This document shows, piece after piece, positions 1,996 through 42,900 of a stretch of 64,000 nucleotides of DNA. Each line of letters begins with the position of its first letter. Position 1 is the stretch's first letter. The notes under the pieces are model-generated. The model was not told the origin of the DNA, made no database searches, and worked only from the letters and a program-made list of their open reading frames with translations. Source of the DNA: Ostreococcus lucimarinus (taxonomy: Eukaryota); assembly GCA_000092065.1 (NCBI GenBank), contig CP000597.1; one strand, 5' to 3'. The position numbers and the translations under genes were made by a program.

Positions 1996-4362
1996 CCACT
2001 CGGCCCACTGTATGACGCCGTCGCCGTTCAAATCAGCCGCTTTGGCAATTTTCTGAACGGTCGCGTTGTGAGAGTCCCACAACTTGGCACCCGGAACGAG
2101 GGTTTCGATGAACATATCAATCGTCTTCGCGAACTGCTCTTGATTGAGGTAGGGGAACGGAAACTTTTCATCCGGATTGGACGCGTTGGCTTCAAACAAC
2201 GCGAAGACCTCTTTGTCGAAATCGATTGCAACCGCCGACCTTGTCTCCGCAGAACCTCCAGCGTTCAAACCAGTGCGAGAGCCGATGGCGAACACATCTT
2301 GCGCGAAAGCTTCGATCGCTGAAACGAGTGATTCGTTCAATGCATCCGTAACCGCCGGCCCTGCAGATTCCATCACAGTCGCTTCGGCTCTTCTACTCAA
2401 ACCCGTGTTGAGTCGATGACCGACGACGGTCACCTCAAAATCAGAAGCTACTTGAGCGACGAAAGCAAGAACAAAAGCGTAAACGTTGCCCATGATCTCT
2501 TGAACCGAAGGGATGTCAGCAAAGTCCTTGGTGATCTCCCTCAACGCTCGCGCGTCCGGACGGAAGCGGCTGAGGTCCTTGACGTCGCGCTTCGGCGCTT
2601 GGCGCACCAGCATTCGGATTCTTCGCCCGAGCATGTCGAGCTCAAAATCGGACAACACTGTAGATAAAATATCCACTATGAGTTCAAAACAGTTAATGTA
2701 CAGCAAACGCTCAATGTTATCGGGAATAGCCTTGACGTTGTACATGGGATCGCGAAGGAGGTAGTCGACAAATTCCGAAATCGCCTCTCGAGTCTGCTTT
2801 TGTGCCTTTTTTCTCGCAGCTCTGCTCGGGTCTTCATCACCGTCGATGCTCACACCCAAAATTTGACGTGCCTCCGAGGCTATGTTGCTAAAGTCGCCTC
2901 TACGAATTTCGTTCCCCATTTGCTGCAGGAGGTCGCGGGCGCTGGGTGTCTTCTTCGCGGCGTCGCCTTCGTCGAATGTCAAGGCGTCGTCGTCGAACGA
3001 CGCTGACACGTTTGCTCCGCTCGACGGACTGAGCACACGCATAGAAATGTTGAAACCCAAGTTACTCAACACGGGCTCTTTTCCTATCTCACCGAACAAG
3101 CCGGTGAGGAGGTTGATGTACGTGTCGCGCTCGATTCGTCGGGGAAGAAACACTGACGAGATGGCCATCGCTCGAGTGTCCATATATTCATCGACGCACA
3201 CTTCGATAAGTTGCTTCACCGCGCGCTGCGTCTCCAAACGATCCTCGTCGGAAAAGGAGATGTTTGCAAACGCCTCTCGAGTATCGTCGTCGTAAGGCTC
3301 TAACGCAAACTCCACGGTGAATCCTTTAATCTTTGCCTCCATCGTGAGCGCCTCGGATAACATACCCACCGCAACCTTGGCGACGTTTTCTTGGAGATGC
3401 GGGAACAGATTTGTCGGTGGCGGGGCTTTGAGCTCTTCGCGCGCAATCTTGCGGAGCGTTTGATTCGACAGATTCGGCACGATGTCTAAGTAGCCGTCGC
3501 CGCTCGCGACGAGCTTAGTCCTTCGCCCTTCCGCCATGCCATCCTCTTCGCTCGACACTTCAAAGACGAATTCCCGGTCGAAAAGTTGCAACTTGAACGT
3601 TTTTAACGTATCTTCGAACACGGTCCATCCCGTGAGCGCGCCGTTCGTGTAGAGCTTCCTTTCGAGCGGCCCGGGTAACAAGACGGGAATCCCGCTCGTT
3701 TCGCCGACGACGTCGCCGATAAACTTTGCGAGCTCCTGCTCCTTGATACCACTCTTTTCCGGAACGTGTCTGGCGTCCAGATAATCGCTCATGATCAGAG
3801 GATGCCCCAAAACGCTCGCTCCGACGAGGTTCTGTCGTAAGTTCTTCATCGCCGACGCGTACGCCGCCTTGCAAACCTCGCGATACACCTCGCTCTCCGC
3901 GAACTCCGGAACGAACGGAATATCGTACGCATCGTTAATAATCTTCGCGTAACGATCCAAAACCTTCGCCTCCGCGGATTTCTTCTTCCCTCTCGACGCC
4001 CTGGCCAGCGCCACCGCGGCGGCCCCTCCCGCGACCGCGACGCCCGCGCCCGCCGCCGCGCTCGCCCCCGCCCCGCGCGTCCCCTCCCGCGCTCGCGCTT
4101 CCGCCGCCGTCGACACCGACGCCACCATCTTCGTCCCATCGCGCGCGCGCGCCGGTCGCAATCCCTCCATCGCGTCCTTCGCCGTCCTCTTCGCGCCCTC
4201 GTCCGTCTTCTTCGCGTTCGCGTTCGCGTTCGCGTTCGCGTTCGCGCGTCCCGCGCCCCGCGCCGGTCGCCCTCGCCGATCGCGCGTCCGTCCGACCCGC
4301 GCGCGCGTCGTCGACCCGCGTCCGCCGGTCGTCGCGCGCGCGCGAGACGCTCGCGTCGCCAT
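1918..4362 (-). CDS. Hypothetical 814-aa protein. Its C-terminus has one canonical EF-hand loop (DLNGDGVIQWAE). Its N-terminus is Arg/Ala-rich and may be a targeting sequence.
   Basis: Long uninterrupted ORF with GC3-rich codons. The EF-hand 12-residue loop consensus D-x-N-x-D-G-x-I-x-x-x-E sits directly before the stop. The ANANANANANA stretch is encoded by the (TTCGCG)6 repeat at 4211..4246. Confidence 0.6.
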   Translation of the reverse strand: MATRASRARATTGGRGSTTRARVGRTRDRRGRPARGAGRANANANANANAKKTDEGAKRTAKDAMEGLRPARARDGTKMVASVSTAAEARAREGTRGAGASAAAGAGVAVAGGAAAVALARASRGKKKSAEAKVLDRYAKIINDAYDIPFVPEFAESEVYREVCKAAYASAMKNLRQNLVGASVLGHPLIMSDYLDARHVPEKSGIKEQELAKFIGDVVGETSGIPVLLPGPLERKLYTNGALTGWTVFEDTLKTFKLQLFDREFVFEVSSEEDGMAEGRRTKLVASGDGYLDIVPNLSNQTLRKIAREELKAPPPTNLFPHLQENVAKVAVGMLSEALTMEAKIKGFTVEFALEPYDDDTREAFANISFSDEDRLETQRAVKQLIEVCVDEYMDTRAMAISSVFLPRRIERDTYINLLTGLFGEIGKEPVLSNLGFNISMRVLSPSSGANVSASFDDDALTFDEGDAAKKTPSARDLLQQMGNEIRRGDFSNIASEARQILGVSIDGDEDPSRAARKKAQKQTREAISEFVDYLLRDPMYNVKAIPDNIERLLYINCFELIVDILSTVLSDFELDMLGRRIRMLVRQAPKRDVKDLSRFRPDARALREITKDFADIPSVQEIMGNVYAFVLAFVAQVASDFEVTVVGHRLNTGLSRRAEATVMESAGPAVTDALNESLVSAIEAFAQDVFAIGSRTGLNAGGSAETRSAVAIDFDKEVFALFEANASNPDEKFPFPYLNQEQFAKTIDMFIETLVPGAKLWDSHNATVQKIAKAADLNGDGVIQWAEWYYAAGAINRATKIANKKTLEELKGG
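4211..4246. repeat. Hexanucleotide microsatellite (TTCGCG)6 inside the coding sequence.
   Basis: Read directly: ttcgcg x6. It encodes (AN)n on the minus strand, in the N-terminal region of the 1918..4362 gene. Confidence 0.85.
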
Positions 4363-4716
4363 CGCGTCCGCGCTCGCCCTTCGTTCGTGCGTTCGTTCGA
4401 GCGATTAATCGATCGATCGGGTCGATGAATCGATCGATTAATCGAGCGGGCGTTCGCGCGCGCGCGCGCTCGATCCGCCGTGTCGTCGCCGCGCGATCGC
4501 GCTCGATCCGCGCGCGCGCGATCGTCCTCGCGCGCGAACGTCTCGAGCTCGCCGCGCGTCCGCGCGGGGGGGAACGATCGCGCGCGACGCGGAAGAGGTC
4601 TGTGTTTTTAGGAGACGTCGATTTTCGACGCGCGACGCGCGCCGCGGAGACCGACGGCGAAACCGCGCGGGTTCGGAATGGATGACGTCGCGCTGTGTAA
4701 AACTGTGACTTTACGA

Positions 4717-4818
4717 AACTTGAAAAGACTTGAAACGCGCGACGACTGGATAAAACTTGAAAAGACTTGAAACGCGCGACGACTGGATAAAACTTGAAAA
4801 GACTTGAAACGCGCGACG
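4717..4818. repeat. 37-bp minisatellite, about 2.8 copies (unit aacttgaaaagacttgaaacgcgcgacgactggataa).
   Basis: Copies at 4717-4753, 4754-4790 and 4791-4818 (the last truncated). It lies in the intergenic spacer between the 3' end of the RCC1-repeat gene and the 5' end of the 1918..4362 gene. Confidence 0.85.
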
Positions 4819-4955
4819 GGCCGCGCCACCGTTTTGTAACCGCGCGCGGTCGTCGGTACGGCTGAAGTTTGTCGCGAGCGCGACGACCTCTTCCATGCAA
4901 ACGCACGACGATGGTATAGCGAGAAGGGCGGTGATTGCGAGGACGACGAGCGCGC

Positions 4956-6086
4956 TCACGTTTGAATAACGATGACTTGCGGCTGTTGCGGCGTAACGGC
5001 GACGGGAGCGCCGCGGGTGGGGATGCCGAGGCGCGCGCGGAGCTTGTCGTCGGCGCGGCGGCGCGACCTGACGCAGAGCCCGATGAGAGTCAAGATGATG
5101 ACGAACGCAATACAACCGACGGCAATACCGGCGATTTCAACGTCGCTCAACGTATCCGCGGAGCGCAACGGAACGATGGTGCCCGGAACGCCGCCGCCAC
5201 CCGAGGAGCCACCCGCGGAGACTGACGTCGTCGTCGTGATGCCCAAAACCTGGACGGGAATATTCGAGCTTGTAGTAGCGTTGTTTCCGAGCTGACCTTT
5301 GTCATTGTAACCCCAGCACTGCACCGTGTCGCCGGCGAGCGTGGCGCAATTGAAGTCGTAACCCGCGGAGACTGACGTCGCCGTCGTGATGTTGGAAACC
5401 TGGACGGGAATATTCGAGCTTGTAGTAGTGCCGTCTCCGAGCTGACTATTGACATTGACACCCCAGCACTGCACCGTGCCGTCGGCGAGCATGGCGCAAT
5501 TGTGGCTGCCACCCGCGGAGACCGACGTCGCCGTCGTGATGCCCGAAACCAGGACAGGAGTAAGTCGGTTTGTCTTAGTGCCGTCTCCGAGCCGACCGTC
5601 GAGATTGTAACCCCAGCACTGCACCGTGCCGTCGGCGAGCATGGCGCACGTGTGGGCGCCACCCGTGGAGACCGACGTCGCCGTCGTGATGCCCGAAACC
5701 AGGACAGGAGTAGGTCGGTGTGTAGTAGTGCCGTCTCCGAGCTGACCTTTGTCATTGTAACCCCAGCACTGCACCGTGCCGTCGGCGAGCGTGGCGCACG
5801 TGTGGCCGCCACCCGCGGAGACTGACGTCGCCGTCGTGATGCCCGAAACCAGGACGGGAGTAAGTCGGTTTGTAGTAGTGCCGTCTCCGAGCTGACCGTT
5901 GGCATTGTAACCCCAGCTCTGCACCGTGCCGTCGGCGAGCAGGGCGCACGTGTGGCTGCCACTCATGGAGCCACCCGCGGAGACTGACGTCGCCGTCGTG
6001 ATGCCCGAAACCAGGACGGGAGTAAGTCGGTATATAGTAGTGCCGTCAGCGAGCTGACCGTCGCCATTGCTACCCCAGCACTGCAC
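4956..6086 (-). CDS. RCC1-repeat (beta-propeller) protein with a C-terminal transmembrane anchor. At least 6 RCC1-like repeats (WGxNxxGQLGDGTTT...HTCAxLADGTVQCWG).
   Basis: The repeat signature is typical of RCC1/HERC blades. The hydrophobic stretch IAGIAVGCIAFVIILTLIGLCV followed by RSRRR looks like a membrane anchor. The ORF begins at a GTG. The same frame continues upstream to an ATG at 6282-6284 and is interrupted only by an in-frame TAG at 6207-6209 (see findings). Confidence 0.7.
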   Translation of the reverse strand: MQCWGSNGDGQLADGTTIYRLTPVLVSGITTATSVSAGGSMSGSHTCALLADGTVQSWGYNANGQLGDGTTTNRLTPVLVSGITTATSVSAGGGHTCATLADGTVQCWGYNDKGQLGDGTTTHRPTPVLVSGITTATSVSTGGAHTCAMLADGTVQCWGYNLDGRLGDGTKTNRLTPVLVSGITTATSVSAGGSHNCAMLADGTVQCWGVNVNSQLGDGTTTSSNIPVQVSNITTATSVSAGYDFNCATLAGDTVQCWGYNDKGQLGNNATTSSNIPVQVLGITTTTSVSAGGSSGGGGVPGTIVPLRSADTLSDVEIAGIAVGCIAFVIILTLIGLCVRSRRRADDKLRARLGIPTRGAPVAVTPQQPQVIVIQT

Positions 6087-13275: not shown

Positions 13276-16200
13276 ATGGAGTACGTCGACGCGTCAACGC
13301 TGCGAAAACTGTCGACGTCGGGTGACATCATCATCGTCGACGCGAGCTGGGCGATCGCGAACGACGTCGAGCGCGCGCGCGCGGCGCACGAGAGCGAGCG
13401 CATCCCGAACGCGACGTTTTATGATCACGACGAGGTGTGCGACCTGTCGTCGCCGCTGCCGCAGGCGTTCCCGCCGCGGGAAGCGTTCGCGCGAGGCGTC
13501 GGCGGCGGACTCGGGGCGACGAAGACGCGAGACGTGGCGATATACGCGAAAAACGGCGCGTCTTGCGCGGCGGAGGCGTGTGCGTTCGCGTTCTTGGAAT
13601 ATGGACATCGAGGACGGGTGATGGTGCTCAAGGGAGGGATGGAGGCGTGGAAGGCGGAAGGCTACGAGACGGAGGTCGGGGCGGAGACGATGCGCGAGCG
13701 GGCGACGGTGGAGTACGACGAAGACGGATCGAACGGAACGCGCGAGGGGAAGAAATCGGGATTCGTCGACGCGAAAGATTTGTTGACGAACTTGAGCACG
13801 CAGCGGTTGCAAGTGCTGGATTGCCGACAGTCGGAGGTGTTCGCGGGAGGGGCGAGAGACGCGGCGTACGTTCGGATTCAGGATCGAGCGATTCAGTTCG
13901 AGGGCTTCCGCGAAGGGCACATTCCGGGGGCGAAGAATTTACCGTACACGCGGTTGTTCGACGTCGCGGACGAAAACTTGCGAGAAATATTCGAGGGCGC
14001 GGGGTTGGACCTGTCCATGCCCGTGGCCGTGGTCGGTTCGGGGGGCGTCGACGCGGCGCCGATGGTGGCGTCAGCGCTCACGCGCGCCGGGTGCGCCGAC
14101 GCCGTGGTGCTAAAGAACGGTATGTGTGCGTGGTGCACGGCGCAAGGGAGCTCGTATCCGATGTCCATCGCTAGCACTTCTCCGCACGCTTCGCACAACG
14201 AAAAGCGCCTGATCGTTTGGGCGGTGACTCGATCGCGCGGCACCGCGCTCGAACGCTCGTTCTCTATGCACTCCGAGGCGATGGTCATGCACGAGTTACT
14301 CACGGAGCCGTGCTTGAAGGAGAATAATCCGGAAAATTACGCCAAGATTGTCAGTGGACAATCTGAACATCATGTCGCGAGCAGTGGATGCAGCTATGCG
14401 ACGATGTTAGAGGTGATGACGGCGGATTACTCCGCGCAAGGACGTCCATTCTTCTTCTCCAAAGAGCTGTCGTGTTACTTTGACTTGAAGCAAATGAAGT
14501 CGAGCTGGTTAAAACGGTTCACGCACGTGGTGTTGATTCGACAACCGACGGAAACGATAGAGTCATTTTATCGCGTCTCCATTGAACACAAGGAAGGGAG
14601 CTGCTATTATGATCCATCTGAGGCTGGATTTGCGGAAGCTTTTGGTATCGTAAACGCGTTGAAGCGTATCAATGCCAAGGTTATGGTCGTCGACGCTGAC
14701 GCGGATTTGCTGTCGCGACCAGAGGAGACGCTCCAAGAGATGTGTTCGCTGGCAAACGTGAACTTTGAGAGTTCGATGTTGTCATGGAAGCCCGCAGAGT
14801 TGTCAACGTGGATCAAATTTCGCGGTTGGCACGACGATGCGGCGAGATCGAGCGAGTTCAAAGCTGTCGACAAGGCACCGATGCAAAACGTACCGCCGGA
14901 ACTCTGCGTCGATGCGGCGAAGCAACAACCGTATTACGACGCCATAGGGTGGGAGCGCAAAGAAACTTCCAAGCGTTGGCCGTTCTTACGCCAGCTCACG
15001 AATCCGACGCATCGGTTCTCCGTCGTCGTGTGCGCATCGGATGAAGGCGCTATGGATATGTTCCCTCGTCTTGCCGCCGCGCGTCTGAGCGGCGTCAACT
15101 TGTACGAGTTCAAGCCGAGCGAAGTTGATCAGGCGATGAATAAATGCCCGTATATTTTCGACGACCCGATCGTTCTAGTGGGCGCACACGGACCCACGCT
15201 GCACATGGCCGAGGCACTGCGCGAGCGTGCGCAGAAGGACGGAACTTTGTGCATCGTACGCATAGTTCTCGTCGACGCTTCGGCGCATCGCGTTCGACCC
15301 GAAGGATTCGAGCACAGCTGGGTCCCAGAAGATTCGCTCAAGGATCAAACCAGCATGGACGAAGTTTTACAGAGTATTTTAGTCGACATCGAAACGGCAC
15401 AAAGCAAAAGTGCGAAGGAGATGGCGGATGTGAACGCGTTAGCCTCGACGACGACGTCGGCGGCGACGCACTGGCGCTCGGGTTTGGCGACGGCGTTGCA
15501 AGACGCTCGCTCCGACAAACCTTGCGTTACAGATGCGACGAGTACGTACACGATGAAAGAAGTGTACTCGCGTGCGTATCACGTCGCAGATATGCTCACC
15601 GAACGCGGTGCGCTGAACTCTCGTGTGGGTTTGTTTGTGCAAGCCTCCGCGGCGTCGGTGTGGTGCGCCATGGGTTCACTCTTGTGTGAATCTGTGTTTT
15701 GCGAAATCCCCGCGTGGTATCGCGACACCGACCTCGAACGCGTGTTGCGTTTGAACGAGTCGAAAGTCATAATAACTTCTCGTGATCTCGTGCAGTTCGT
15801 ACCCACCGCGTACAGAGACTTGGTCGTGGTCGTCGAGGACATGGAGTACGACGTCGACTTGAGCGGCGAGCTTCATCCGGCGCTGACGCGTCCTGACACT
15901 CCCGATGCCCCCGGGTTCTCCGTACTCACCAGTGGCACTACTGGTGTGAGTAAAATTCTGTGCTGTCCACAATCCGCGCTGACGGACTCGCAATCGGTCA
16001 TTGGGCCACACATGCGTGGCGACGATGTCATGGGGAGCTTTTGGGTCTATTATTACTTCTTCATTCCGCTCCTCGCTGGTCGCACGCTGAGCGTCATCCC
16101 GAACGATTTCTTCCTCAAGCCCCGAGAGTTGATTTCGTATGTGCGAAGTCAAAAAATGACCATGCTTTACCTCAGTCCGAGTATCCTGGAGAGCTGTTTG

Positions 16201-19200
16201 TTGCACTGCACGCCGCAAGAGTTCTCCGAAGGGATGCAAGACGTGCACACAATTTTATTGACCGGTGAACGCGTGCGAAGAGAGACTCGTATGCTTCTCG
16301 CCGAGCGTCTCACCCGTACGCGTTTGATTGACGTGTACAGCACGAACGAAACGGGTGATTTGGCGATATCTGATTACGGTGGAGCGTTCTTCCTGCGTGA
16401 GGGCACGCAAGCGCGCGTGTTGACGGATGACGGCAAGCCAGCTGTTCGCGGCACCGTCGGCCAGCTTCACGTTAAAAAGAGTGGTTTGCTCGTTGGCTTC
16501 TACACGGATAACGGTTACGCGAAGATCGAAAGCGAGTGGTATCCAACTGGCGATCTCGTTCGTTGGTTAGGTCGCAACAGGTTGACTTTTGAATCTCGTC
16601 AAAAGTCGGCATACGTCAAGATTCGTGGCTTCAAGGTTTCGCCGGTCATGGTACAAGACGTCATGCTCAAGATGCCAGTGATTAAACAGGCCATCGTGAG
16701 CACGATCGGACAGTCTGACATTGACCAGCAACTCGTCGCTGCTATCTCCTTCAACAACGGTGCGCGAGCGAAGGAGAGCGAATTGCGGGCACACATGGCA
16801 GCGCACGTGCCGCACTACATGATTCCGTCGACGTTTTACGACCTCGGCAACAAAGTGTCCACAGCTACCTCTGGTAAAGTGGTCAAGCTTGATGTCGATA
16901 GGCTGGACAAAATCACCGATAGTAACGAAGTGCAACTGACTACAAAGCAAAATGAGGTCGTGGAGGTGTGGCGCCAAGTGTTAGATCAACCGGAGAAGAA
17001 CTTCGCGGCGACGGAGAGCTTTTTCGACTACGGCGGAAGCTTGAAATTTGTTGAGCTTGCGGCGGCACTTTCGAAGAAATGGGGGGTGAGTTTGACGGTT
17101 CCCGAAGTCATCGCCAAGCCGACGCTGGCTGAGATGGCCCTACTTATGGAAGATTATAAAAACGCCAAGTTTGAGCCCGAGGTCGAAGTCGCAAAGTATG
17201 ACTTTTCCGAGTTCAAGCGAGCGCCAAAGAAGAATACTGCGGCGGGCAAGAAGAATATTCTCCTTACCGGCGCTACTGGTTTTCTTGGTGCGTACTTGCT
17301 TCAAGAACTCGCCGCAAGCGATGAAATTGATCAGATTTACGCTATCGTGCGCGCAAAAGACAAGTTTGCGGCGCAAAATCGCGTGCTCGATGTCTTCCGT
17401 AAGCGCGGGCTCACGTTTACCGATCAAATAACGCAAAAGACAACGTTCATGTGTGGTGACATGTCAATGCCGTTGTACGACATACCCGAAGCCACGCTCG
17501 CGCCAGTTTTGGAAGTGATTGACGTTGTCATCAGCGGTGGCGCGGAAGTCAATATGGTGAAGTCTTATTCAGCGTTAGAAAAGGTAAACGTCGGAGGAAC
17601 GTTCAACGGGCTCGAGATCGCGTCGCGCGCCGGCGCTAGACACGTTCTCATTTCCACGCAGTATCCGCTTCCGGGTGAAGTTTCAACGGGATACCGACGA
17701 AGTAAAGAGGTCGCGGAGATGCTATGCGAGCGCGCGCAGAAAGAAGTTGGCGTTGAGTCGGCCGTTTTATTGTTTGGTGACATCGGTATTTCTCGTGCCG
17801 TCGGTTCGCTCGCGCCCGACGATGACTACATCGTCATCTTCCTCCGCGCCTGCCTCGCGACAGGTTTCTTCCCACGTACCGAGTGGGCTGTTAGTATCTT
17901 GTGCGTCGATGATTGCGTGAAGATGCTCACGTCAATCTCATTATCCGGCCAAGTCGATCGTTATGCGTTTGACGGCGTCGCGCGTGAAGTAAAGGGTAAA
18001 CTGATGCCGTTTTCTCAACTTTACGAATGGCTCTCCAAGGAGTACGCGTTGCAGCTGTGCAGCTACGATGGCTGGCTCAATGCAGTTAAGGCTGGCGCCG
18101 CCGAAGGCAACACGATCCTTCAGCGCGCGCTCCTGACGATTGATTCCATGGAAGTCGAACTCAGAGCGGAGGGTGAGCACTTCAACTCGCAGGCGGCGTC
18201 AGATGCGCTCTTCTCCGTGGACGAAGCGTGGGGTAAGAACCTCGTCGGTGCGCTAATTCTCGAACTCTACAGCGAACTTCAAAATGACGACAAAGACACC
18301 ACCATCGGCTTCGCCGCGTTGGCGCAAGGCGAAGATTTGGTTCCGTTCAAGTATCGCCTCCCAGACATGACCCCGACGTCTGTCGAGGTGAAGGTCGAGT
18401 ACTGCGGCTTGTGCGGAAGTGATGATCACTTGATCGTGGGTGACTATGGTGAATATGCGGTGTGGCCGCAAGTTTGCGGACACGAAGTCGTGGGTACGGT
18501 CACCCAAGTTGGCACGGCGGTGACGACGCTAAAAGCCGGTCAACGCGTTGGCGTCGGCTGGCAGAGCTCGTCTTGCCACGATTGCGAGTGGTGCGCGCGA
18601 GGCGATGAGCAGCTGTGCTCTAGTGTCGGTTGTACATGCTGCGAAGGTAACAAAGGTGGTTTCGCCGATCGCATGCGCTTAAACGACTCGCAATTCTGCT
18701 ACAAAATCCCAGACGCGCTGTCTTCCGCGGAAGTCGCGCCGTTGCTATGCGGTGGCCAAACCGTTTGGACGCCTTTGAACGAGCAAACGAAGTCTAGCGA
18801 TCGCGTCGGCATTCTCGGCCTCGGTGGACTCGGTCACATGGCCATCAAGTTCGCCAAGGCGCTCGGTCGAGAAGTCACCGCGATTTCGTCTTCGGCGTCG
18901 AAGCGCGCCGACGCCCTGTCGCACGGCGCGTCGCGCTTTTTGGTGCACACCAACCAAGAAGAGATGGATGCCGCCGCCTCATCGCTCGACTTCATCCTAG
19001 TCACCATCGCCACGAATAAAGAGGTGGACTTCGCGAAGTTTTTCCCCTTGTTACGCCCGCGTGGGACGATTTGTTTCGTCGGCATGTGCCCTCCCATCCA
19101 AGCCGACGTCTTCACTCTCGGCTTCACCATGAACAACATCACAACGAGTAACACCGGGGGCAAAAAGGACATGGTTCAAATGCTCGAATTCTGCGCCCGA

Positions 19201-19374
19201 CACAAGATCGGCGCCTCCGTCGCCGTGAGTCCGCTCAGCGAGATCAACACCGCCATCACGGCTTTGCGCACGGGCGAATCCCACTTCCGACACGTCCTCG
19301 TCAACGACGTCTCGAGCGGTAGTCAACACCGTCGCATGGCCAGCGCCTTCGGCAGCGGCTTCCCTTCCCGTTAA
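13276..19374 (+). CDS. Multidomain megaenzyme (2032 aa): rhodanese, rhodanese, sulfotransferase-like, AMP-dependent adenylation, phosphopantetheine carrier, NAD(P)-dependent thioester reductase, and a Zn-dependent MDR alcohol dehydrogenase.
   Basis: Rhodanese 1 (~13276-13680): IIIVDASW...ERIPNATFYD. Rhodanese 2 (~13780-14150): VLDCRQSEVF...GHIPGAKNLP. Sulfotransferase-like (~14210-15300): IVWAVTRSRGT. A-domain core motifs: LTSGTTGVSK (~15927-15950), YSTNETGD, YPTGDL, KIRGFKV. Carrier: FFDYGGSL (~17020-17040). Reductase: LLTGATGFLGAYL (~17263-17300). ADH: CGLCGSD, GHEVVG (~18478-18500), GLGGLGHMAIKFAKALG. One uninterrupted ORF with an ATG at 13276. Confidence 0.85.
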   Translation: MEYVDASTLRKLSTSGDIIIVDASWAIANDVERARAAHESERIPNATFYDHDEVCDLSSPLPQAFPPREAFARGVGGGLGATKTRDVAIYAKNGASCAAEACAFAFLEYGHRGRVMVLKGGMEAWKAEGYETEVGAETMRERATVEYDEDGSNGTREGKKSGFVDAKDLLTNLSTQRLQVLDCRQSEVFAGGARDAAYVRIQDRAIQFEGFREGHIPGAKNLPYTRLFDVADENLREIFEGAGLDLSMPVAVVGSGGVDAAPMVASALTRAGCADAVVLKNGMCAWCTAQGSSYPMSIASTSPHASHNEKRLIVWAVTRSRGTALERSFSMHSEAMVMHELLTEPCLKENNPENYAKIVSGQSEHHVASSGCSYATMLEVMTADYSAQGRPFFFSKELSCYFDLKQMKSSWLKRFTHVVLIRQPTETIESFYRVSIEHKEGSCYYDPSEAGFAEAFGIVNALKRINAKVMVVDADADLLSRPEETLQEMCSLANVNFESSMLSWKPAELSTWIKFRGWHDDAARSSEFKAVDKAPMQNVPPELCVDAAKQQPYYDAIGWERKETSKRWPFLRQLTNPTHRFSVVVCASDEGAMDMFPRLAAARLSGVNLYEFKPSEVDQAMNKCPYIFDDPIVLVGAHGPTLHMAEALRERAQKDGTLCIVRIVLVDASAHRVRPEGFEHSWVPEDSLKDQTSMDEVLQSILVDIETAQSKSAKEMADVNALASTTTSAATHWRSGLATALQDARSDKPCVTDATSTYTMKEVYSRAYHVADMLTERGALNSRVGLFVQASAASVWCAMGSLLCESVFCEIPAWYRDTDLERVLRLNESKVIITSRDLVQFVPTAYRDLVVVVEDMEYDVDLSGELHPALTRPDTPDAPGFSVLTSGTTGVSKILCCPQSALTDSQSVIGPHMRGDDVMGSFWVYYYFFIPLLAGRTLSVIPNDFFLKPRELISYVRSQKMTMLYLSPSILESCLLHCTPQEFSEGMQDVHTILLTGERVRRETRMLLAERLTRTRLIDVYSTNETGDLAISDYGGAFFLREGTQARVLTDDGKPAVRGTVGQLHVKKSGLLVGFYTDNGYAKIESEWYPTGDLVRWLGRNRLTFESRQKSAYVKIRGFKVSPVMVQDVMLKMPVIKQAIVSTIGQSDIDQQLVAAISFNNGARAKESELRAHMAAHVPHYMIPSTFYDLGNKVSTATSGKVVKLDVDRLDKITDSNEVQLTTKQNEVVEVWRQVLDQPEKNFAATESFFDYGGSLKFVELAAALSKKWGVSLTVPEVIAKPTLAEMALLMEDYKNAKFEPEVEVAKYDFSEFKRAPKKNTAAGKKNILLTGATGFLGAYLLQELAASDEIDQIYAIVRAKDKFAAQNRVLDVFRKRGLTFTDQITQKTTFMCGDMSMPLYDIPEATLAPVLEVIDVVISGGAEVNMVKSYSALEKVNVGGTFNGLEIASRAGARHVLISTQYPLPGEVSTGYRRSKEVAEMLCERAQKEVGVESAVLLFGDIGISRAVGSLAPDDDYIVIFLRACLATGFFPRTEWAVSILCVDDCVKMLTSISLSGQVDRYAFDGVAREVKGKLMPFSQLYEWLSKEYALQLCSYDGWLNAVKAGAAEGNTILQRALLTIDSMEVELRAEGEHFNSQAASDALFSVDEAWGKNLVGALILELYSELQNDDKDTTIGFAALAQGEDLVPFKYRLPDMTPTSVEVKVEYCGLCGSDDHLIVGDYGEYAVWPQVCGHEVVGTVTQVGTAVTTLKAGQRVGVGWQSSSCHDCEWCARGDEQLCSSVGCTCCEGNKGGFADRMRLNDSQFCYKIPDALSSAEVAPLLCGGQTVWTPLNEQTKSSDRVGILGLGGLGHMAIKFAKALGREVTAISSSASKRADALSHGASRFLVHTNQEEMDAAASSLDFILVTIATNKEVDFAKFFPLLRPRGTICFVGMCPPIQADVFTLGFTMNNITTSNTGGKKDMVQMLEFCARHKIGASVAVSPLSEINTAITALRTGESHFRHVLVNDVSSGSQHRRMASAFGSGFPSR

Positions 19375-27048: not shown

Positions 27049-28773
27049 CTAATAAAGACCGATCACCTTCCACCAAAGACCGCCGAAGACGAGCCAGATG
27101 AGAACGTTGGCGACGCCACAGATGGCGCCGATGCGGAAGTAATCCTTAAGCTCGACGAAGCCGGCGCCGAAGTAGCACGCGGATTGCCCCGAGGCGTAGT
27201 GCGTGATGCCGCCGAAGAGGTTGGTGTGGAAAGCCATGGTGAGGCCGACCAATATGGGCGGCGCGCCGGCAGCCATCATCATCGCCATGAACGCCGTGGA
27301 AAGCGCGGCGACTTGCGCGGTTTGAGACGCGAACAAGTAGTGAATGGAAAAGTAGCAACCGTGGAGCAAAAGCATGACTTGCGGCCACGCCAAGTTGGCC
27401 GCCGTCAATGCGCCGGCGACGGTGGTGGAGAGATAATCGATGAAACCCAGGGCGTTGAGCTGACCAGACATACCGATCAAGACGGCGAACCACAACAACG
27501 TATCCCAAGCGCCCTTTTCGTTCAAGCACTCGGCCCAGGAAATGACGCCGGAGATGAGTTGAAGGGACATCCCGAACATGGCGGCGACGACGGGCGCGAT
27601 GCCAAAGGGTTGGAAAATCCACATGAACACCGTGATGCTCATCGTAGCGACGACCATGAGCTCATCTTGAGACAAAGGACCGAGTTCTTTCAGCTTTGCC
27701 GCCGCCTCCGCGGGAGCGTCGGGCGTGCTTTGCACCTCCGGTGGGTACAACTTGTACACCAAGAGCGGGGTGACGAGCAAACCGATGATCGCCGGGACGC
27801 ACGCCGCCTTGAACCACGTGATCCACGGCGAAGCGACGATGATGCCGAGAGAAGCCGCGAGCTTGAGACTCAACAAGTTTTGAGCCGCCGCGGTCATGCA
27901 CATCGCGCTCGAGTGTCCGCTCGATTGCAGTTGCGTTTGCACCAAAAACGCCCCGAGCTTGCGCGACGTCGGCCCCGGCTCTGACCCCGCCTGCTTGGCG
28001 AGGGACGTGATGATGGGCAAGTACACCCCACCCGCGCGCGCCGTCGTGGACGGCATCGCGGGCGCGAGCAAAGCCTCAGAGATGGTCAGACCGTAAGACA
28101 GACCGAGCGTAGACTTGCCGAGCGCGCGCACGAACATCGTCGCCACGCGGTCGCCCAACCCCGTGCGCACGAAACCGCGCGCGAAGAAGAACGCGAGCAC
28201 GATGAGCCAAATCACATCATTCGTCATCGCTCCGAACGCCGCTTGAAAGCTCAGCGTCTTCGTCACCACCGCCGTGGTCAACCCGACGAACGCCCACGCC
28301 CCCACCGGCAACGGCCCCAACACGAGCCCGCAAATCGTCGACAAAAAAATGCTCAACAGCGCCCACGCCTGCGGCACGACCGCCTCCGGTCGCGGCACAA
28401 TAAAGTTCACCACCAACCCCACGCCCACGGACGCGGCGAGCGGGACCAAATTCGCTCCCTTCCACACGAACGGCGTCGCCGCCGCGCTCGCGTTCGCCGC
28501 GCGCGCCGCGCCCGCGACCACCGCCTCTCGCCGTCGCGCTCGCGTCGCGCCCGCCGCGCCTCGCGCGCTCGCGCACGTCGCACACGCGCACGCGCGCGCG
28601 TGCGCGTCTCCGCGCGTCGTCGGCAGCGCCATCGTCGTCGCCGTCGTCGTCGTTCGCGCGCGTCGTCCCGTCGTCGTCGTCGTCGTTCGCGCGCGTCGTC
28701 CCTTCGTCGCGCCGTCGCGCGCGCGCGCGTCGACGCGCGCGCCGATCGCTCTCGCGCTCATCACCGCGCGCAT
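27049..28773 (-). CDS. Plastid dicarboxylate (2-oxoglutarate/malate) translocator of the DiT1/DiT2 type, DASS family, with an N-terminal transit peptide.
   Basis: About 12 hydrophobic segments and the DASS/DiT signature ISEALLAPAMPSTTARAGGVYLPI. The N-terminus (MRAVMSARAIGARVDARARDG...TTTTT...) is Ser/Thr/Arg/Ala-rich. Start taken at the ATG at 28771-28773. The upstream 190 codons of the track ORF cross an AT-rich promoter-like region (~28860-28930) and are rejected. Confidence 0.8.
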   Translation of the reverse strand: MRAVMSARAIGARVDARARDGATKGRRARTTTTTTGRRARTTTTATTMALPTTRGDAHARACACATCASARGAAGATRARRREAVVAGAARAANASAAATPFVWKGANLVPLAASVGVGLVVNFIVPRPEAVVPQAWALLSIFLSTICGLVLGPLPVGAWAFVGLTTAVVTKTLSFQAAFGAMTNDVIWLIVLAFFFARGFVRTGLGDRVATMFVRALGKSTLGLSYGLTISEALLAPAMPSTTARAGGVYLPIITSLAKQAGSEPGPTSRKLGAFLVQTQLQSSGHSSAMCMTAAAQNLLSLKLAASLGIIVASPWITWFKAACVPAIIGLLVTPLLVYKLYPPEVQSTPDAPAEAAAKLKELGPLSQDELMVVATMSITVFMWIFQPFGIAPVVAAMFGMSLQLISGVISWAECLNEKGAWDTLLWFAVLIGMSGQLNALGFIDYLSTTVAGALTAANLAWPQVMLLLHGCYFSIHYLFASQTAQVAALSTAFMAMMMAAGAPPILVGLTMAFHTNLFGGITHYASGQSACYFGAGFVELKDYFRIGAICGVANVLIWLVFGGLWWKVIGLY

Positions 28774-29022
28774 CGTTCGCGTCGAGCGTCGCGCGCGCGC
28801 GTGTGCGGCGTCGCGCGCGTCGAGGTCGTTAGGGCAAATCGAGGCCCCCTCGGAGATAAATGCCGGGAATCGCGTATTCGACGCGTTCGAACGCCGTGTA
28901 TATATATCCGAATGTCCGAATTCATACATCACCGCGCACTGAATGCCCACACGAAGGCGCGCCGACGTCGCCCGCCCCCGCGCCGCGCGCGCGCGCGTCG
29001 CCACACGTCGACGCCCGTCGAC

Positions 29023-36950: not shown

Positions 36951-39900
36951 ATGCGGCTCGACGACGGCGACGACGCGCGACGAAGGGACGCGCGCGCGGT
37001 TCGAGCGCGCGCGACGCGGACGCCGACGCGCGCGGCGACCACGCGCGGCGATGTCGTCGACGCCGCTGCCGCCGATGATGACATCGACGACGACGCCGTC
37101 GCGCGACCGGACGCGACGCGACGACGACGACGCGACGACGACGCGACGACGACGACGCGCGATGATGAGACGACGCGCGCGCGAGAGGGCGCGAGCGGAC
37201 GCCGGCGAGCGCGGGAACGAGGGAGAGCGACGAGGCGTCGTCGACGGCTCGGGACGGCGGCGGCGGCGGCGGCGACGGCGGCGTTGGCGGCGACGGTCGA
37301 GCGCGTCGGCGTGGACGCGTCGACGGCGCTCACGAAGGGGGTGGCGAGGAATGGTTTCGTGTCGTCGAGCGGGTATAAGTACTATAAGGTGAATGTGGCG
37401 TGCGTGGAGGCGGCGCAGCCGCTGACGTTGGAGCTGACGACGAGCAACGGGGACGCGAACTTGTACGTGTCTCGATCGGCGCAGCCGACGACTTCGTCGT
37501 ACGAACAGCGGAGCGTGAACGTTGGAAATGCGTTGGATTCGGTGACGATCACGAGTCCGGTGAATGGGTACTATTACGTGAGCGTGTACGGCGCGCTGTC
37601 CAGCACGTACAAGCTTCGAGCGCTCACGACGATGTTTACCGGGAAACATCCGTGCACGGGATTTCGAATCACCGATAGCGACGTCTCGAGCGTTGGCTCG
37701 GGATCTGGAAATCAGTTCATACTGCAAGAAGCGCTCACCGCGAGCGCGGCGGCGGGATTCACCGCGGATGTGTCCGTCGACGGCGACGTCATCCTCGGCG
37801 ACGCGTACACCGATTCGGTGACGGCGAAAGGAGAGCTCAAGCTCGGCGTGACGGACAGTACGTACTACGCCATCACGCGACAATCGCCGAGCGCACCGAG
37901 CAGCAACCCGGGCGGCGCTTTGTCGATCGTCGGCGCGAACGCGACCTATCAGGGGGGATCGGTAAAGATTCTCGGCGGAACGGGCGGTTCGGGGGCGGGC
38001 GGCGACGTCGTGATCGAGGCGGGGTCGGCGTCTGGCGGCAACGGTGGCGATTTGAAGTTACGTGGCGGCACGTCGAACTCAGGAACGGGCGGCGACGTCG
38101 TCATAGATGCCGGAGATAGCACGACACAAGCATCTTCGTACGAGGGCATCATTCACATAGGTCCAACTTCTGCGTCGTTTGTGCGCGTCGGCGAGAGTTC
38201 AAATAAGCAAGTTCAAACCGATATTTTCGGCGACTTGACGGTGCACGGAAATCTCTTGACAACGAATGATGTGGTGTACGCGAACAGCTACACGAGTTAC
38301 GTGCAGGTTTCAACCTCTCAAGACGGCATGTTTCATCAAGAAGTGCGCGCGCCAAAGATTACAGGTCTGGACGCGGAGGACATCACGGGCACTCCAACGA
38401 GCACGTTGACTTTAGACGCTGGCATGCGAGGGAGTCAGCAACACGTCGTGATCGCTCCGAGCGAGGCAACGGCGGTTTACATAGGTAGCAGCACATCCAC
38501 GATTCCGGTCTCGATAAGGCAAGGCGCGAACGCAGGAGACGTGCGAGTGCACGCTGATGGCAGCGGCGCGCTGTCCGTGACTTCGGCCGCAGGGCAGGAC
38601 CTGACGCTCGCGTCCGGCGACGACGTGGTGGTGACCACCGCGGCGAGTAAGACGCTCGCGCTGAAGCAGGACTCGACGAGCATTTTGAGCTGGGACGCGG
38701 CCGGCGCTGTGACTGTGAACTCCGTGAGCGGGCAGGACCTGACGCTGAGCACGGGCGGTAGCGCGGCCGTGACTGTGGACTCGACCGGGCAGGTGGGCAT
38801 CGGGACGACGACGCCGGGGAAGACGCTGGACGTCACCGGGACGGCGCGCGTGAGTGGCGCGACGACGCTGAGTAGCACGCTTGACGTGACTGGCGCTACG
38901 ACGCTCGCATCCGTGGGCGTGACCGGTGCGGCCACCGTCGGCGGGACTTTAGGTGTGACTGGCGCTACGACGCTCGCATCCGTGGGCGTGACCGGCGCGG
39001 CCACCGTCGGCGGGACTTTAGGTGTGACTGGCGCTACGACGCTCGCATCCGTGGGCGTGACCGGCGCGGCCACCGTCGGCACGACGCTCGGCGTGACTGG
39101 CGCTACGACGCTCACCGGCGACGTGACGATGAGCAACGACTTGACCGTGAGCGGTGCGCTTACTGTGACATCTGATGCCGCTGTGAGTTTGACCTCTGCA
39201 AGTGGTTCGGACGTGAGCTTGACGAGCGCCGGTACGGGTGGCATCGTGTTGACGTCGACGGACGACATCACGCTCGATGCTGCCGATGATGTGACGATCG
39301 ATGCCGCCGGTGCTTTGTCTTTGGAGCAGGGCGGGACGAGTATTTTGAGCTGGACCGACACCGGCGCTGTGACTTTGAACTCCTTAGGCGGGCAGACCCT
39401 GAGCGTGTCGAGCCTCAGCTCGGCCGGGAACGCGGGCGCCGTGAGCGTGTCCGGCGGCACGACGACTGGGACGTCCTCGAACACCGGCGGCGACTTGACG
39501 CTGCAATCTGGCGGCGCGCCCGCTGGCAGCGTGAACGGTGACGTTCTGGTGGACTCGGCCACTGGTCTAGGCACCGCCGGCTCGATCACGCTTCGCCAGG
39601 GGGTGGGCGGTGAGCGTGTTTCTGTGGACGCGAACGGCGCCGTGAGTCTGGACACGCACTCCGGGCAGGACCTGACGCTGAGCACGGGCGGTAGCGCGGC
39701 CGTGACTGTGGACTCGACCGGGCAGGTGGGCATCGGGACGACGACGCCGGGGAAGACGCTGGACGTCACCGGGACGGCGCGCGTGAGTGGCGCGACGACG
39801 CTGAGTAGCACGCTTGGCGTGACTGGCGCTACGACGCTCGCATCCGTGGGCGTGACCGGTGCGGCCACCGTCGGCGGGACTTTAGGTGTGACTGGCGCTA

Positions 39901-42900
39901 CGACGCTCGCATCCGTGGGCGTGACCGGCGCGGCCACCGTCGGCACGACGCTCGGCGTGACTGGCGCTACGACGCTCACCGGCGACGTGACGATGAGCAA
40001 CGACTTGACCGTGAGCGGTGCGCTTACTGTGACATCTGATGCCGCTGTGAGTTTGACCTCTGCAAGTGGTTCGGACGTGAGCTTGACGAGCGCCGGTACG
40101 GGTGGCATCGTGTTGACGTCGACGGACGACATCACGCTCGATGCTGCCGATGATGTGACGATCGATGCCGCCGGTGCTTTGTCTTTGGAGCAGGGCGGGA
40201 CGAGTATTTTGAGCTGGACCGACACCGGCGCTGTGACTTTGAACTCCTTAGGCGGGCAGACCCTGAGCGTGTCGAGCCTCAGCTCGGCCGGGAACGCGGG
40301 CGCCGTGAGCGTGTCCGGCGGCACGACGACTGGGACGTCCTCGAACACCGGCGGCGACTTGACGCTGCAATCTGGCGGCGCGCCCGCTGGCAGCGTGAAC
40401 GGTGACGTTCTGGTGGACTCGGCCACTGGTCTAGGCACCGCCGGCTCGATCACGCTTCGCCAGGGGGTGGGCGGTGAGCGTGTTTCTGTGGACGCGAACG
40501 GCGCCGTGAGTCTGGACACGCACTCCGGGCAGGACCTGACGCTGAGCACGGGCGGTAGCGCGGCCGTGACTGTGGACTCGACCGGGCAGGTGGGCATCGG
40601 GACGACGACGCCGGGGAAGACGCTGGACGTCACCGGGACGGCGCGCGTGAGTGGCGCGACGACGCTGAGTAGCACGCTTGGCGTGACTGGCGCTACGACG
40701 CTCGCATCCGTGGGCGTGACCGGTGCGGCCACCGTCGGCGGGACTTTAGGTGTGACTGGCGCTACGACGCTCGGCGGGACTTTAGGTGTGACTGGCGCTA
40801 CGACGCTCGCATCCGTGGGCGTGACCGGCGCGGCCACCGTCGGCACGACGCTTGGCGTGACTGGCGCTACGACGCTCGGCGGGACTTTAGGTGTGACTGG
40901 CGCTACGACGCTCGCATCCGTGGGCGTGACCGGCGCGGCCACCGTCGGCACGACGCTCGGCGTGACTGGCGCTACGACGCTCGCATCTGTGGGCGTGACC
41001 GGTGCGGCCACCGTCGGCGGGACTTTAGGTGTGACTGGCGCTACGACGCTCACCGGCGACGTGACGATGAGCAACGACTTGACCGTGAGCGGTGCGCTTA
41101 CTGTGACATCTGATGCCGCTGTGAGTTTGACCTCTGCAAGTGGTTCGGACGTGAGCTTGACGAGCGCCGGTACGGGTGGCATCGTGTTGACGTCGACGGA
41201 CGACATCACGCTCGATGCTGCCGATGATGTGACGATCGATGCCGCCGGTGCTTTGTCTTTGGAGCAGGGCGGGACGAGTATTTTGAGCTGGACCGACACC
41301 GGCGCTGTGACTTTGAACTCCTTAGGCGGGCAGACCCTGAGCGTGTCGAGCCTCAGCTCGGCCGGGAACGCGGGCGCCGTGAGCGTGTCCGGCGGCACGA
41401 CGACTGGGACGTCCTCGAACACCGGCGGCGACTTGACGCTGCAATCTGGCGGCGCGCCCGCTGGCAGCGTGAACGGTGACGTTCTGGTGGACTCGGCCAC
41501 TGGTCTAGGCACCGCCGGCTCGATCACGCTTCGCCAGGGGGTGGGCGGTGAGCGTGTTTCTGTGGACGCGAACGGCGCCGTGAGTCTGGACACGCACTCC
41601 GGGCAGGACCTGACGCTGAGCACGGGCGGTAGCGCGGCCGTGACTGTGGACTCGACCGGGCAGGTGGGCATCGGGACGACGACGCCGGGGAAGACGCTGG
41701 ACGTCACCGGGACGGCGCGCGTGAGTGGCGCGACGACGCTGAGTAGCACGCTTGGCGTGACTGGCGCTACGACGCTCGCATCCGTGGGCGTGACCGGTGC
41801 GGCCACCGTCGGCGGGACTTTAGGTGTGACTGGCGCTACGACGCTCGGCGGGACTTTAGGTGTGACTGGCGCTACGACGCTCGCATCCGTGGGCGTGACC
41901 GGTGCGGCCACCGTCGGCGGGACTTTAGGTGTGACTGGCGCTACGACGCTCGGCACGACGCTCGGCGTGACTGGCGCTACGACGCTCGCATCCGTGGGCG
42001 TGACCGGCGCGGCCACCGTCGGCACGACGCTCGGCGTGACTGGCGCTACGACGCTCACCGGCGACGTGACGATGAGCAACGACTTGACCGTGAGCGGTGC
42101 GCTTACTGTGACATCTGATGCCGCTGTGAGTTTGACCTCTGCAAGTGGTTCGGACGTGAGCTTGACGAGCGCCGGTACGGGTGGCATCGTGTTGACGTCG
42201 ACGGACGACATCACGCTCGATGCTGCCGATGATGTGACGATCGATGCCGCCGGTGCTTTGTCTTTGGAGCAGGGCGGGACGAGTATTTTGAGCTGGACCG
42301 ACACCGGCGCTGTGACTTTGAACTCCTTAGGCGGGCAGACCCTGAGCGTGTCGAGCCTCAGCTCGGCCGGGAACGCGGGCGCCGTGAGCGTGTCCGGCGG
42401 CACGACGACTGGGACGTCCTCGAACACCGGCGGCGACTTGACGCTGCAATCTGGCGGCGCGCCCGCTGGCAGCGTGAACGGTGACGTTCTGGTGGACTCG
42501 GCCACTGGTCTAGGCACCGCCGGCTCGATCACGCTTCGCCAGGGGGTGGGCGGTGAGCGTGTTTCTGTGGACGCGAACGGCGCCGTGAGTCTGGACACGC
42601 ACTCCGGGCAGGACCTGACGCTGAGCACGGGCGGTAGCGCGGCCGTGACTGTGGACTCGACCGGGCAGGTGGGCATCGGGACGACGACGCCGGGGAAGAC
42701 GCTGGACGTCACCGGGACGGCGCGCGTGAGTGGCGCGACGACGCTGAGTAGCACGCTTGGCGTGACTGGCGCTACGACGCTCGGCGGGACTTTAGGTGTG
42801 ACTGGCGCTACGACGCTCGCATCCGTGGGCGTGACCGGCGCGGCCACCGTCGGCACGACGCTCGGCGTGACTGGCGCTACGACGCTCGCATCCGTGGGCG

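Follow-up and report, generated by a model that had tools for sequence, protein, structure and literature searches.

The stretch analysed here, 64,000 nucleotides of Ostreococcus lucimarinus contig CP000597.1 (assembly GCA_000092065.1; hereafter the window), carries on its plus strand between positions 13276 and 19374 one unbroken reading frame which opens with ATG, specifies 2032 amino acids and includes its stop codon. A preliminary description, made from the letters alone, had taken this for a single-ORF megaenzyme containing two rhodanese domains, a sulfotransferase (ST), an adenylation-carrier-reductase (A-T-R) module and a zinc alcohol dehydrogenase (ADH). That observation is confirmed: Pfam and NCBIfam searches recovered the rhodanese pair, the sulfotransferase, the A, T and R domains and the zinc ADH, and all of the quoted motifs were located (TSGTTG, YxTxETG, YPTGDL, KIRGF, FFDYGGSL, TGATGFLG, GHEVVG and GLGGLGH). 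Between ST and A lies one further domain, here called X, which was absent from the earlier reading; the domain order is Rhod-Rhod-ST-X-A-T-R-ADH. The features, all on the plus strand, are listed below with the evidence for each.

13276..19374, plus strand: complete megaenzyme ORF (reading frame; identical protein, P0001, on metagenome contigs)
13282..13665, plus strand: rhodanese domain 1, the N-terminal half of the tandem, which is normally inactive (Pfam Rhodanese; NCBIfam 3-mercaptopyruvate sulfurtransferase [MST] model)
13771..14139, plus strand: rhodanese domain 2, loop VVGSGGVDA, with Gly254 at the catalytic Cys position of MST and thiosulfate sulfurtransferase (TST) (profile alignment to MST/TST structures)
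14200..14985, plus strand: predicted 3'-phosphoadenosine 5'-phosphosulfate (PAPS)-type sulfotransferase, Pfam Sulfotransfer_5 (5'-phosphosulfate-binding [PSB] loop, His-Glu, 3'-phosphate-binding [PB] motif)
14998..15375, plus strand: small alpha/beta domain X, possible thioesterase remnant (GAHGP at the GxSxG position)
15505..16905, plus strand: adenylation domain of the nonribosomal peptide synthetase (NRPS) type, motifs A3, A5, A7, A8 and A10 Lys1201 (Pfam, NCBIfam, alignments)
16954..17139, plus strand: carrier (T) domain, Ser1255 in FFDYGGSL (PP-binding, 2.5e-9)
17254..18108, plus strand: thioester reductase (R), TGATGFLG 1331-1338, Y1473-x3-K1477 (TIGR01746, NAD_binding_4, MxaA)
18307..19299, plus strand: zinc aldehyde reductase of the medium-chain dehydrogenase/reductase (MDR) superfamily, CAD/Ahr/YahK type (Ahr model; PDB matches)

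Judged by motifs and profile matches, three enzyme types are joined in the protein: a reductase of the NRPS-like A-T-R kind, a sulfotransferase of the PAPS type and an MDR of the CAD/Ahr type. The A domain matches Pfam AMP-binding (4e-26) and possesses all of the ANL core motifs A3, A5, A7 and A8 together with the A10 lysine, Lys1201; TSGTTG occupies residues 885-890 (TSGTTGVSK, 885-893), YSTNETG 1021-1027, YPTGDL 1089-1094 and KIRGF 1115-1119. It is followed by the carrier domain, in which FFDYGGSL (1249-1256) supplies the presumed phosphopantetheine attachment site, Ser1255. The GGSL element has one residue fewer than the usual GGxSL and is conserved in every family member, bacterial members included, whose sequence reaches the T domain. 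The preliminary description had named loss of this serine together with the A-domain motifs as the mark of a degenerate relic; Ser1255 is kept along with all of those motifs.

The R domain was recognised by the NCBIfam thioester reductase model TIGR01746 (residues 1327-1611, 1.5e-44) and by NAD_binding_4 (8.6e-33), and matches MxaA (4u7w, 2e-19). Both the GxxGxxG NADPH site and the Tyr/Lys pair (Y1473/K1477) are present, and the R motifs are conserved across the family. The C-terminal domain matches ADH_N (1e-22) and ADH_zinc_N (9e-15) and, over residues 1678-2008, the NCBIfam model for Ahr-type NADPH aldehyde reductases (3.9e-95). Since its score of 318 bits falls below the equivalog cut-off of 470, it belongs to this family but is not Ahr itself. 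Its best PDB matches are CAD-family ADHs from the CAD/YahK branch of the MDR superfamily (1.3e-69 to 1e-49). The catalytic zinc ligands (C1713, H1736, C1825) and the structural ones (C1767, C1770, C1773, C1781) are all in place, GHEVVG lies at 1735-1740, and GLGGLGH (1848-1854) with ISSSASKR (ISSSxSKR) forms a Rossmann motif of the NADP type.

The sulfotransferase was identified through Sulfotransfer_5 (residues 387-557, 28.1 bits, cut-off 23.2). A 5'-PSB loop, WAVTRSRGT (315-323), and the Arg/Ser motif of the 3'-PB site (R422-x-P424-x5-S430) are found on the ST fold, together with His339-Glu340. The nearest solved sulfotransferase structures are the ST-thioesterase didomains of CurM and olefin synthase (OLS) (PDB 4gbm, 4gox), in which, as here, an alpha/beta domain comes after ST and a carrier-protein system is part of the same polypeptide. 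Unlike these, the megaenzyme has its ST upstream of the A domain, and domain X, of about 125 residues (approximately 575-700), has no Ser-His-Asp triad. At the position of the GxSxG nucleophile X has GAHGP, with no serine, and the fold match is not specific; the identification of X as a true thioesterase is not supported. By analogy with CurM and OLS, the ST might sulfate a hydroxyl of the carrier-bound acyl group and so create a leaving group, which would then be eliminated or substituted (possibly by a sulfur nucleophile) before reductive release. We consider such a route improbable, and with it an end product that need not contain sulfate.

The N-terminal region adopts the tandem rhodanese fold. 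Pfam Rhodanese was matched in two stretches (5e-18), profile matches to MST/TST structures range from 3e-13 to 5e-10, and both the fold and the loop geometry are common to these proteins (PDB 5wqk, 3olh, 1rhd) and the megaenzyme. The NCBIfam MST model, however, matches residues 3-286 with 79.7 bits, under its cut-off of 250, and the loop G254-S-G-G-V-D-A aligns with C-G-S-G-V-T-A, Gly254 standing where MST and TST have their catalytic cysteine. Because of this replacement the rhodanese pair is most likely non-catalytic here, and is probably a binding or regulatory module. The cysteine is kept only in lineages P0006 and P0009; most orthologues and paralogues have glycine, and the stand-alone paralogues also lack the catalytic cysteine. 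A role as persulfide carrier in this protein was rejected on the same ground, and the two rhodanese domains do not count as a sign of sulfur-transfer chemistry.

The gene is native, conserved and expressed. Its 90%-identity cluster includes the 408-amino acid gene model XP_001422100.1 of O. lucimarinus CCE9901, which places the DNA in the Mamiellales, as had been guessed from the letters. The source annotation calls this model a zinc-type ADH/enoyl-reductase protein, and it probably covers the C-terminal ADH part only. Set against an ORF of 2032 residues, a 408-residue model means that the public annotation of CCE9901 is truncated, and the reference genome seems to carry a wrong annotation for the megaenzyme. 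An identical protein (P0001) occurs on 17 metagenome contigs with its neighbours unchanged, these being genes for a PWWP protein, a 451-residue unknown, PIP5K, ubiquilin and, about 8 kb downstream, a Na+/sulfate symporter. The ORF for the 451-residue protein is divergent and lies 217 bp from the megaenzyme ORF. The GC content at third codon positions (GC3) is 0.68, inside the range of the neighbouring host genes (0.63-0.82), and recent horizontal transfer was therefore rejected on composition. An O. mediterraneus orthologue of 2044 residues comes from transcriptome MMETSP0929 and so provides evidence for a single transcript. The preliminary description had asked whether the ORF is transcribed as one unit, and this protein, together with an uninterrupted 2142-residue ORF from a more distant lineage (P0396, below), speaks for it.

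The symporter gene occupies 27049-28941 on the minus strand of the window (Pfam Na_sulph_symp, 1e-122), and its arrangement with the megaenzyme gene is repeated on four independent metagenome contigs. Their proximity could be chance synteny or could reflect a functional link to sulfation.

Full-length orthologues are present in all Ostreococcus clades and fall into eight clusters at 67-100% identity, the seven further ones (67-78%) carrying all eight Pfam families. Further relatives were sought by an exhaustive HMMER search with residues 296-1220. Bathycoccus prasinos has an orthologue of 2011-2042 residues at 39% identity (CAL6311780.1; P0213) in a cluster of 632 members. A third, intron-bearing eukaryotic lineage (P0009/P0396) shows 35% identity. 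On its P0009 genomic contig (GC 70%) the complete set of domains is encoded, but three short stretches of approximately 64-119 nt break the reading frame, the first with GT..AG ends, and a 6.5-kb contig (P0396) encodes an uninterrupted protein of 2142 residues with all domains, the three stretches being absent. Some eukaryotes possess A-T-R or A-T-R-ADH forms with the same substrate code (see below) and no ST.

Stand-alone versions of the N-terminal part also occur: a Rhod-Rhod-ST protein with intact ST motifs in Bathycoccus, and Rhod-ST-X paralogues in Ostreococcus, for example in O. tauri. With no A-T-R gene adjacent to it, the O. tauri protein is a separate paralogue, and its candidacy as a split orthologue was rejected. 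It lies (L006, CAID01000012, 4835-20000) among genes of the thiamine-salvage type, namely those for hydroxyethylthiazole kinase, TENA/THI-4, ThiD/ThiE and a sodium:solute symporter. A ligand-gated channel gene adjoins the Rhod-ST-X paralogue there and in two other loci.

The family is not confined to algae. Bacterial ST-X-A-T-R proteins of 1340-1450 residues are colinear with the algal enzyme (29% identity over 1283 residues, E 9e-140) and were found in at least eight Pseudomonas/Phytopseudomonas species, in Halomonas caseinilytica and in metagenome-assembled genomes (MAGs) of a Rhodobacter and a member of the Aestuariivirgaceae. They are annotated only as "SDR family oxidoreductase" (short-chain dehydrogenase/reductase) or "AMP-binding protein"; examples include WP_296246684.1 of Pseudomonas sp. 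UBA4194 and WP_064702634.1 of H. caseinilytica. In 16 out of 16 loci the next gene specifies an Ahr-type zinc ADH, often with overlapping stop and start codons, and this ADH shares 46% of its residues with the C-terminal domain of the alga. The bacterial and algal forms have in common the colinear ST, X, A, T and R domains, the GGSL motif, and three pocket residues (Trp235, Asp330 and Lys517, see below). The bacterial version differs in being split over two genes, in lacking rhodanese domains, and in lying in operons with methyltransferase, oxygenase, APS kinase and EamA transporter genes. Given this colinearity, and an ADH directly following in every locus, the algal gene is a fused form of the bacterial cassette with a rhodanese pair added. 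The preliminary description had asked whether orthologues exist in the Mamiellales only or in bacteria too; full-length proteins are found in Ostreococcus, Bathycoccus and the intron-bearing lineage, and the colinear ST-X-A-T-R core extends to bacteria.

Of these 16 loci, which otherwise fall into two types, 15 include a gene for an EamA transporter. Type 1 (four loci; Halomonas, Rhodobacter) contains genes for serine hydroxymethyltransferase (SHMT), an FAD amine oxidase, a flavodoxin-like reductase, a DUF1330 protein and a SABATH-type methyltransferase, with a phosphopantetheinyl transferase (PPTase) gene in the Halomonas locus. Type 2 (12 loci, mostly Pseudomonas) has a class-I methyltransferase, a 2-oxoglutarate (2OG) oxygenase, an HIBADH-like dehydrogenase, a LysR regulator, an MR/MLE enzyme nearest to cis-3-hydroxy-L-proline dehydratase (hydroxyproline/betaine subgroup) and a Rieske oxygenase nearest to the glycine-betaine monooxygenase GbcA. 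Adenylyl-sulfate (APS) kinase is encoded in 11 of the 12 type 2 loci (223 bits, cut-off 163); this linkage is indirect evidence that the ST domain would use PAPS as its donor. Both the MR/MLE and the Rieske families handle betaines. We know of no characterisation of either type of cluster, or of their ST-X-A-T-R proteins, though no literature search was aimed at them. One type 1 locus (L013) has a second, separate A-T-R gene of 979 codons at 3022-5961 on the minus strand, beside genes for a class-III aminotransferase, a carbamoyltransferase and a HalD-like protein.

The substrate pocket of the A domain was read from alignments to 5u89 and TycA and from a family-wide comparison. The ten-residue code is W923 V924 Y926 Y965 L994 T996 V1020 D1028 L1029 K1201, where W923 corresponds to position 235, Y926 to 239, Y965 to 278, D1028 to 330 and K1201 to 517 of the usual pocket numbering. 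Asp235, which binds the alpha-amino group in amino-acid-activating domains, is thus replaced by tryptophan. The Ostreococcus code WVYYLTVDLK becomes WVYFMTIDLK in Bathycoccus, WIYYWTVDLK in the lineage at 35% identity, WVYYWT(I/V)D(V/N)K in the eukaryotic A-T-R(-ADH) forms and W(L/M/I)(G/C)(M/V)WSLD(V/L/I)K in bacteria. Trp235, Asp330 and Lys517 are universal in algal and bacterial members whose sequence includes the A domain, and the aromatic-plus-acid pocket is kept down to 35% identity.

A comparable pocket has been described in fungal ATRR (A-T-R1-R2). It likewise lacks Asp235 and holds glycine betaine in an aromatic cage of F201, W204 and W270 with E304; a positive charge is essential, and the pocket is size-selective, rejecting both dimethylsulfoniopropionate (DMSP) and beta-alanine betaine (Hai, Huang and Tang, bioRxiv 10.1101/559534). 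The two pockets match in design, no Asp235 and aromatics plus one acid, whereas the residue positions differ. From the tryptophan in place of Asp235, Tyr239 and Tyr278, and the invariant Asp330, we infer by the logic of ATRR that the substrate would be a small cationic "onium" acid, that is, a quaternary-ammonium or sulfonium betaine. The MR/MLE and Rieske genes of the bacterial clusters agree with this, which is not proof.

Two other kinds of acid fit this pocket poorly. A reductase for fatty or other neutral acids (resembling carboxylic acid reductases [CAR] or fatty acyl reductases [FAR]), with subsequent sulfation of the alcohol to give, for example, a sulfated lipid, might be suggested by NAD_binding_4, which is the "male sterility"/FAR family, and by weak matches to long-chain acyl-CoA ligase models. 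The nearest relatives of the A domain are, however, NRPS amino-acid adenylation domains rather than FAAL or CAR, Trp and Tyr fill the pocket, in which an Asp is buried, and the bacterial neighbour genes are for small-molecule amine and betaine-type enzymes; such a substrate is hardly to be expected. The second kind comprises the precursors of sulfonate osmolytes, cysteate being reduced to cysteinolic acid or sulfolactate to 2,3-dihydroxypropane-1-sulfonate (DHPS). This acid-to-alcohol chemistry suits the A-T-R-ADH module, the gene has a sulfur-related domain context, and these sulfonates are abundant in phytoplankton (PMC8703288). An alpha-amino acid would nevertheless need Asp235, the invariant Asp330, the only charged residue of the pocket, would repel a sulfonate, the cysteinolic-acid paper reports no prasinophytes, and a sulfotransferase makes sulfate esters, not C-S bonds. 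With Asp235 lacking and Asp330 invariant, cysteate and sulfolactate are disfavoured, and we think this reading very improbable.

The resemblance to ATRR extends to the overall plan. In fungal and nematode ATRR, as in the megaenzyme, an A-T-R module and a dedicated second aldehyde reductase share one polypeptide and take an acid through the aldehyde to the alcohol. The second reductase of ATRR is, however, of the SDR type (R2) and that of the megaenzyme a zinc-dependent MDR (Ahr/CAD type), so that the architecture is not A-T-R1-R2, and the megaenzyme has four extra N-terminal domains (Rhod-Rhod-ST-X). Fungal ATRR was absent from the family-search matches, an orthology comparison with the ATRR sequence itself not having been made, and the best non-family matches of the A domain are bacterial NRPSs at 22-26% identity. 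With a different second reductase, other code positions and no specific sequence relationship seen, the megaenzyme works like ATRR but stands outside that family. Another algal NRPS-like acid-to-alcohol reductase is PtNRPS1 of a diatom, an A-T-R1-R2 protein which converts tryptophan to tryptophanol (PMC13194791). Its architecture is of the ATRR type, its substrate is an amino acid, and ST, rhodanese and MDR domains are absent.

We put at about even the chances that the megaenzyme is a functional, natively expressed single-polypeptide pathway which takes an onium acid to the alcohol with coupled PAPS-dependent sulfation. In this scheme, pieced together from the domain content, the A domain would adenylate a small onium acid and load it onto the phosphopantetheinyl arm of Ser1255; the R domain would release the aldehyde in an NADPH-dependent step, and the C-terminal Ahr-type ADH would reduce this to the alcohol. 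With PAPS as donor the ST would then sulfate a hydroxyl group, in the simplest case the one on the new primary alcohol, and the rhodanese pair and domain X would be accessory.

The specific case which we favour, while regarding it as speculative and, taken by itself, rather unlikely, is the reduction of DMSP to 3-dimethylsulfoniopropanol. The extraplastidic lipids of O. tauri are diacylglyceryl hydroxymethyltrimethyl-beta-alanine (DGTA) and phosphatidyl-dimethylpropanethiol (PDPT) (PMC8018280). PDPT, a major phospholipid of this kind in O. tauri, appears to replace phosphatidylcholine in Ostreococcus. The PDPT head group, C5H14O4PS+ (PMC7650762), is phospho-3-dimethylsulfoniopropanol, and its alcohol is the acid-to-alcohol reduction product of DMSP. 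Our full-text literature search found no connection between PDPT and DMSP; given the chemical relationship, a DMSP reductase would fill an orphan step. Fungal ATRR supplies choline for phosphatidylcholine, and such an enzyme would be its counterpart in sulfur chemistry. The fused ST would presumably make a second product, a zwitterionic O-sulfate of the sulfonium or ammonium alcohol.

Several points weigh against these proposals. The substrate class is read from alignment-derived pocket residues, and the A4 region contains a one-residue indel at which two pairwise alignments place the residues slightly differently. Since ATRR rejects DMSP, cage-type pockets are evidently size-selective and chain length is unreadable from the code. 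Between bacteria and algae, five to six code positions are not the same; the two groups may therefore use different substrates, and what the neighbouring genes suggest for bacteria may not hold for the alga. The Bathycoccus fusion carries an ST that looks degenerate, its PSB loop reading PNSHTDT with the Arg and Gly lost, with no His-Glu and no Pfam match. As to DMSP in particular, the PDPT model leaves the sulfotransferase without an obvious role and presupposes that Ostreococcus makes enough DMSP, and, although PDPT is made by Emiliania huxleyi, a search by shared words (of limited sensitivity) gave no relative in a named haptophyte.

The main alternative starts from glycine betaine, which an ATRR-like reduction would turn into choline, the ST then making choline-O-sulfate, an osmolyte and sulfur store and one of the products that the preliminary description had named. 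The ATRR-like pocket logic, an ST that looks intact, the APS kinase and GbcA-like Rieske oxygenase of the bacterial clusters and the Na+/sulfate symporter gene 8 kb away would all accord with this. The code, however, is unlike that of ATRR, the aromatics being at other positions, and the ST is degenerate in Bathycoccus. Furthermore, the non-plastidic lipids listed for O. tauri are DGTA and PDPT, not phosphatidylcholine (PMC8018280), so that the demand for choline may be low, and a literature search, which covered Micromonas rather than Ostreococcus or Bathycoccus, found no link between choline sulfate and Micromonas. We judge choline-O-sulfate unlikely. The sulfonium alcohol of the PDPT head group fits the chemistry of Ostreococcus at least as well.

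Full-text literature searches found no description of the megaenzyme or of any ST-A-T-R fusion. Each of its separate chemistries is already known; it is the combination that we have not found described. The preliminary description, which knew of no algal enzyme with this seven-domain architecture, was right to that extent, but the architecture is not without relatives, as bacteria have the colinear ST-X-A-T-R protein followed by the ADH. The algal and bacterial forms show clearly how the same pathway can be encoded as an operon in one domain of life and as a fused gene in another, and the two-gene version offers an easy experimental route to its chemistry.

Ostreococcus and Bathycoccus, tiny marine green algae, are among the most abundant eukaryotic phytoplankton. 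In ocean metagenomes the 90%-identity clusters of the megaenzyme have 220 and 632 members, and despite this oceanic abundance the reference annotation holds just the 408-residue fragment. Should the enzyme act on an onium acid, marine DMSP or betaine metabolism would gain a reductive branch, and the gene would be a candidate for the unexplained biosynthesis of sulfonium lipids (PDPT) or for that of sulfated zwitterionic osmolytes consumed by bacteria. A DMSP reductase, if that case is true, would give DMSP a hitherto unknown anabolic sink, in picoeukaryotes that rank among the most abundant in the sea.

Three further large ORFs were noted elsewhere in the window. That at 36951-47045 (plus strand) specifies 3364 residues, with a pre-peptidase C-terminal (PPC) domain as its sole recognised domain. 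It is overlapped on the opposite strand by an ORF of 2221 codons (38477-45142, minus strand), which probably arises from the high GC content. The third, at 47164-52740 (minus strand), lies in a lower-GC stretch (GC 0.54) and specifies an ion channel of 1858 residues with four Ion_trans stretches, of the voltage-gated Na/Ca-channel type.

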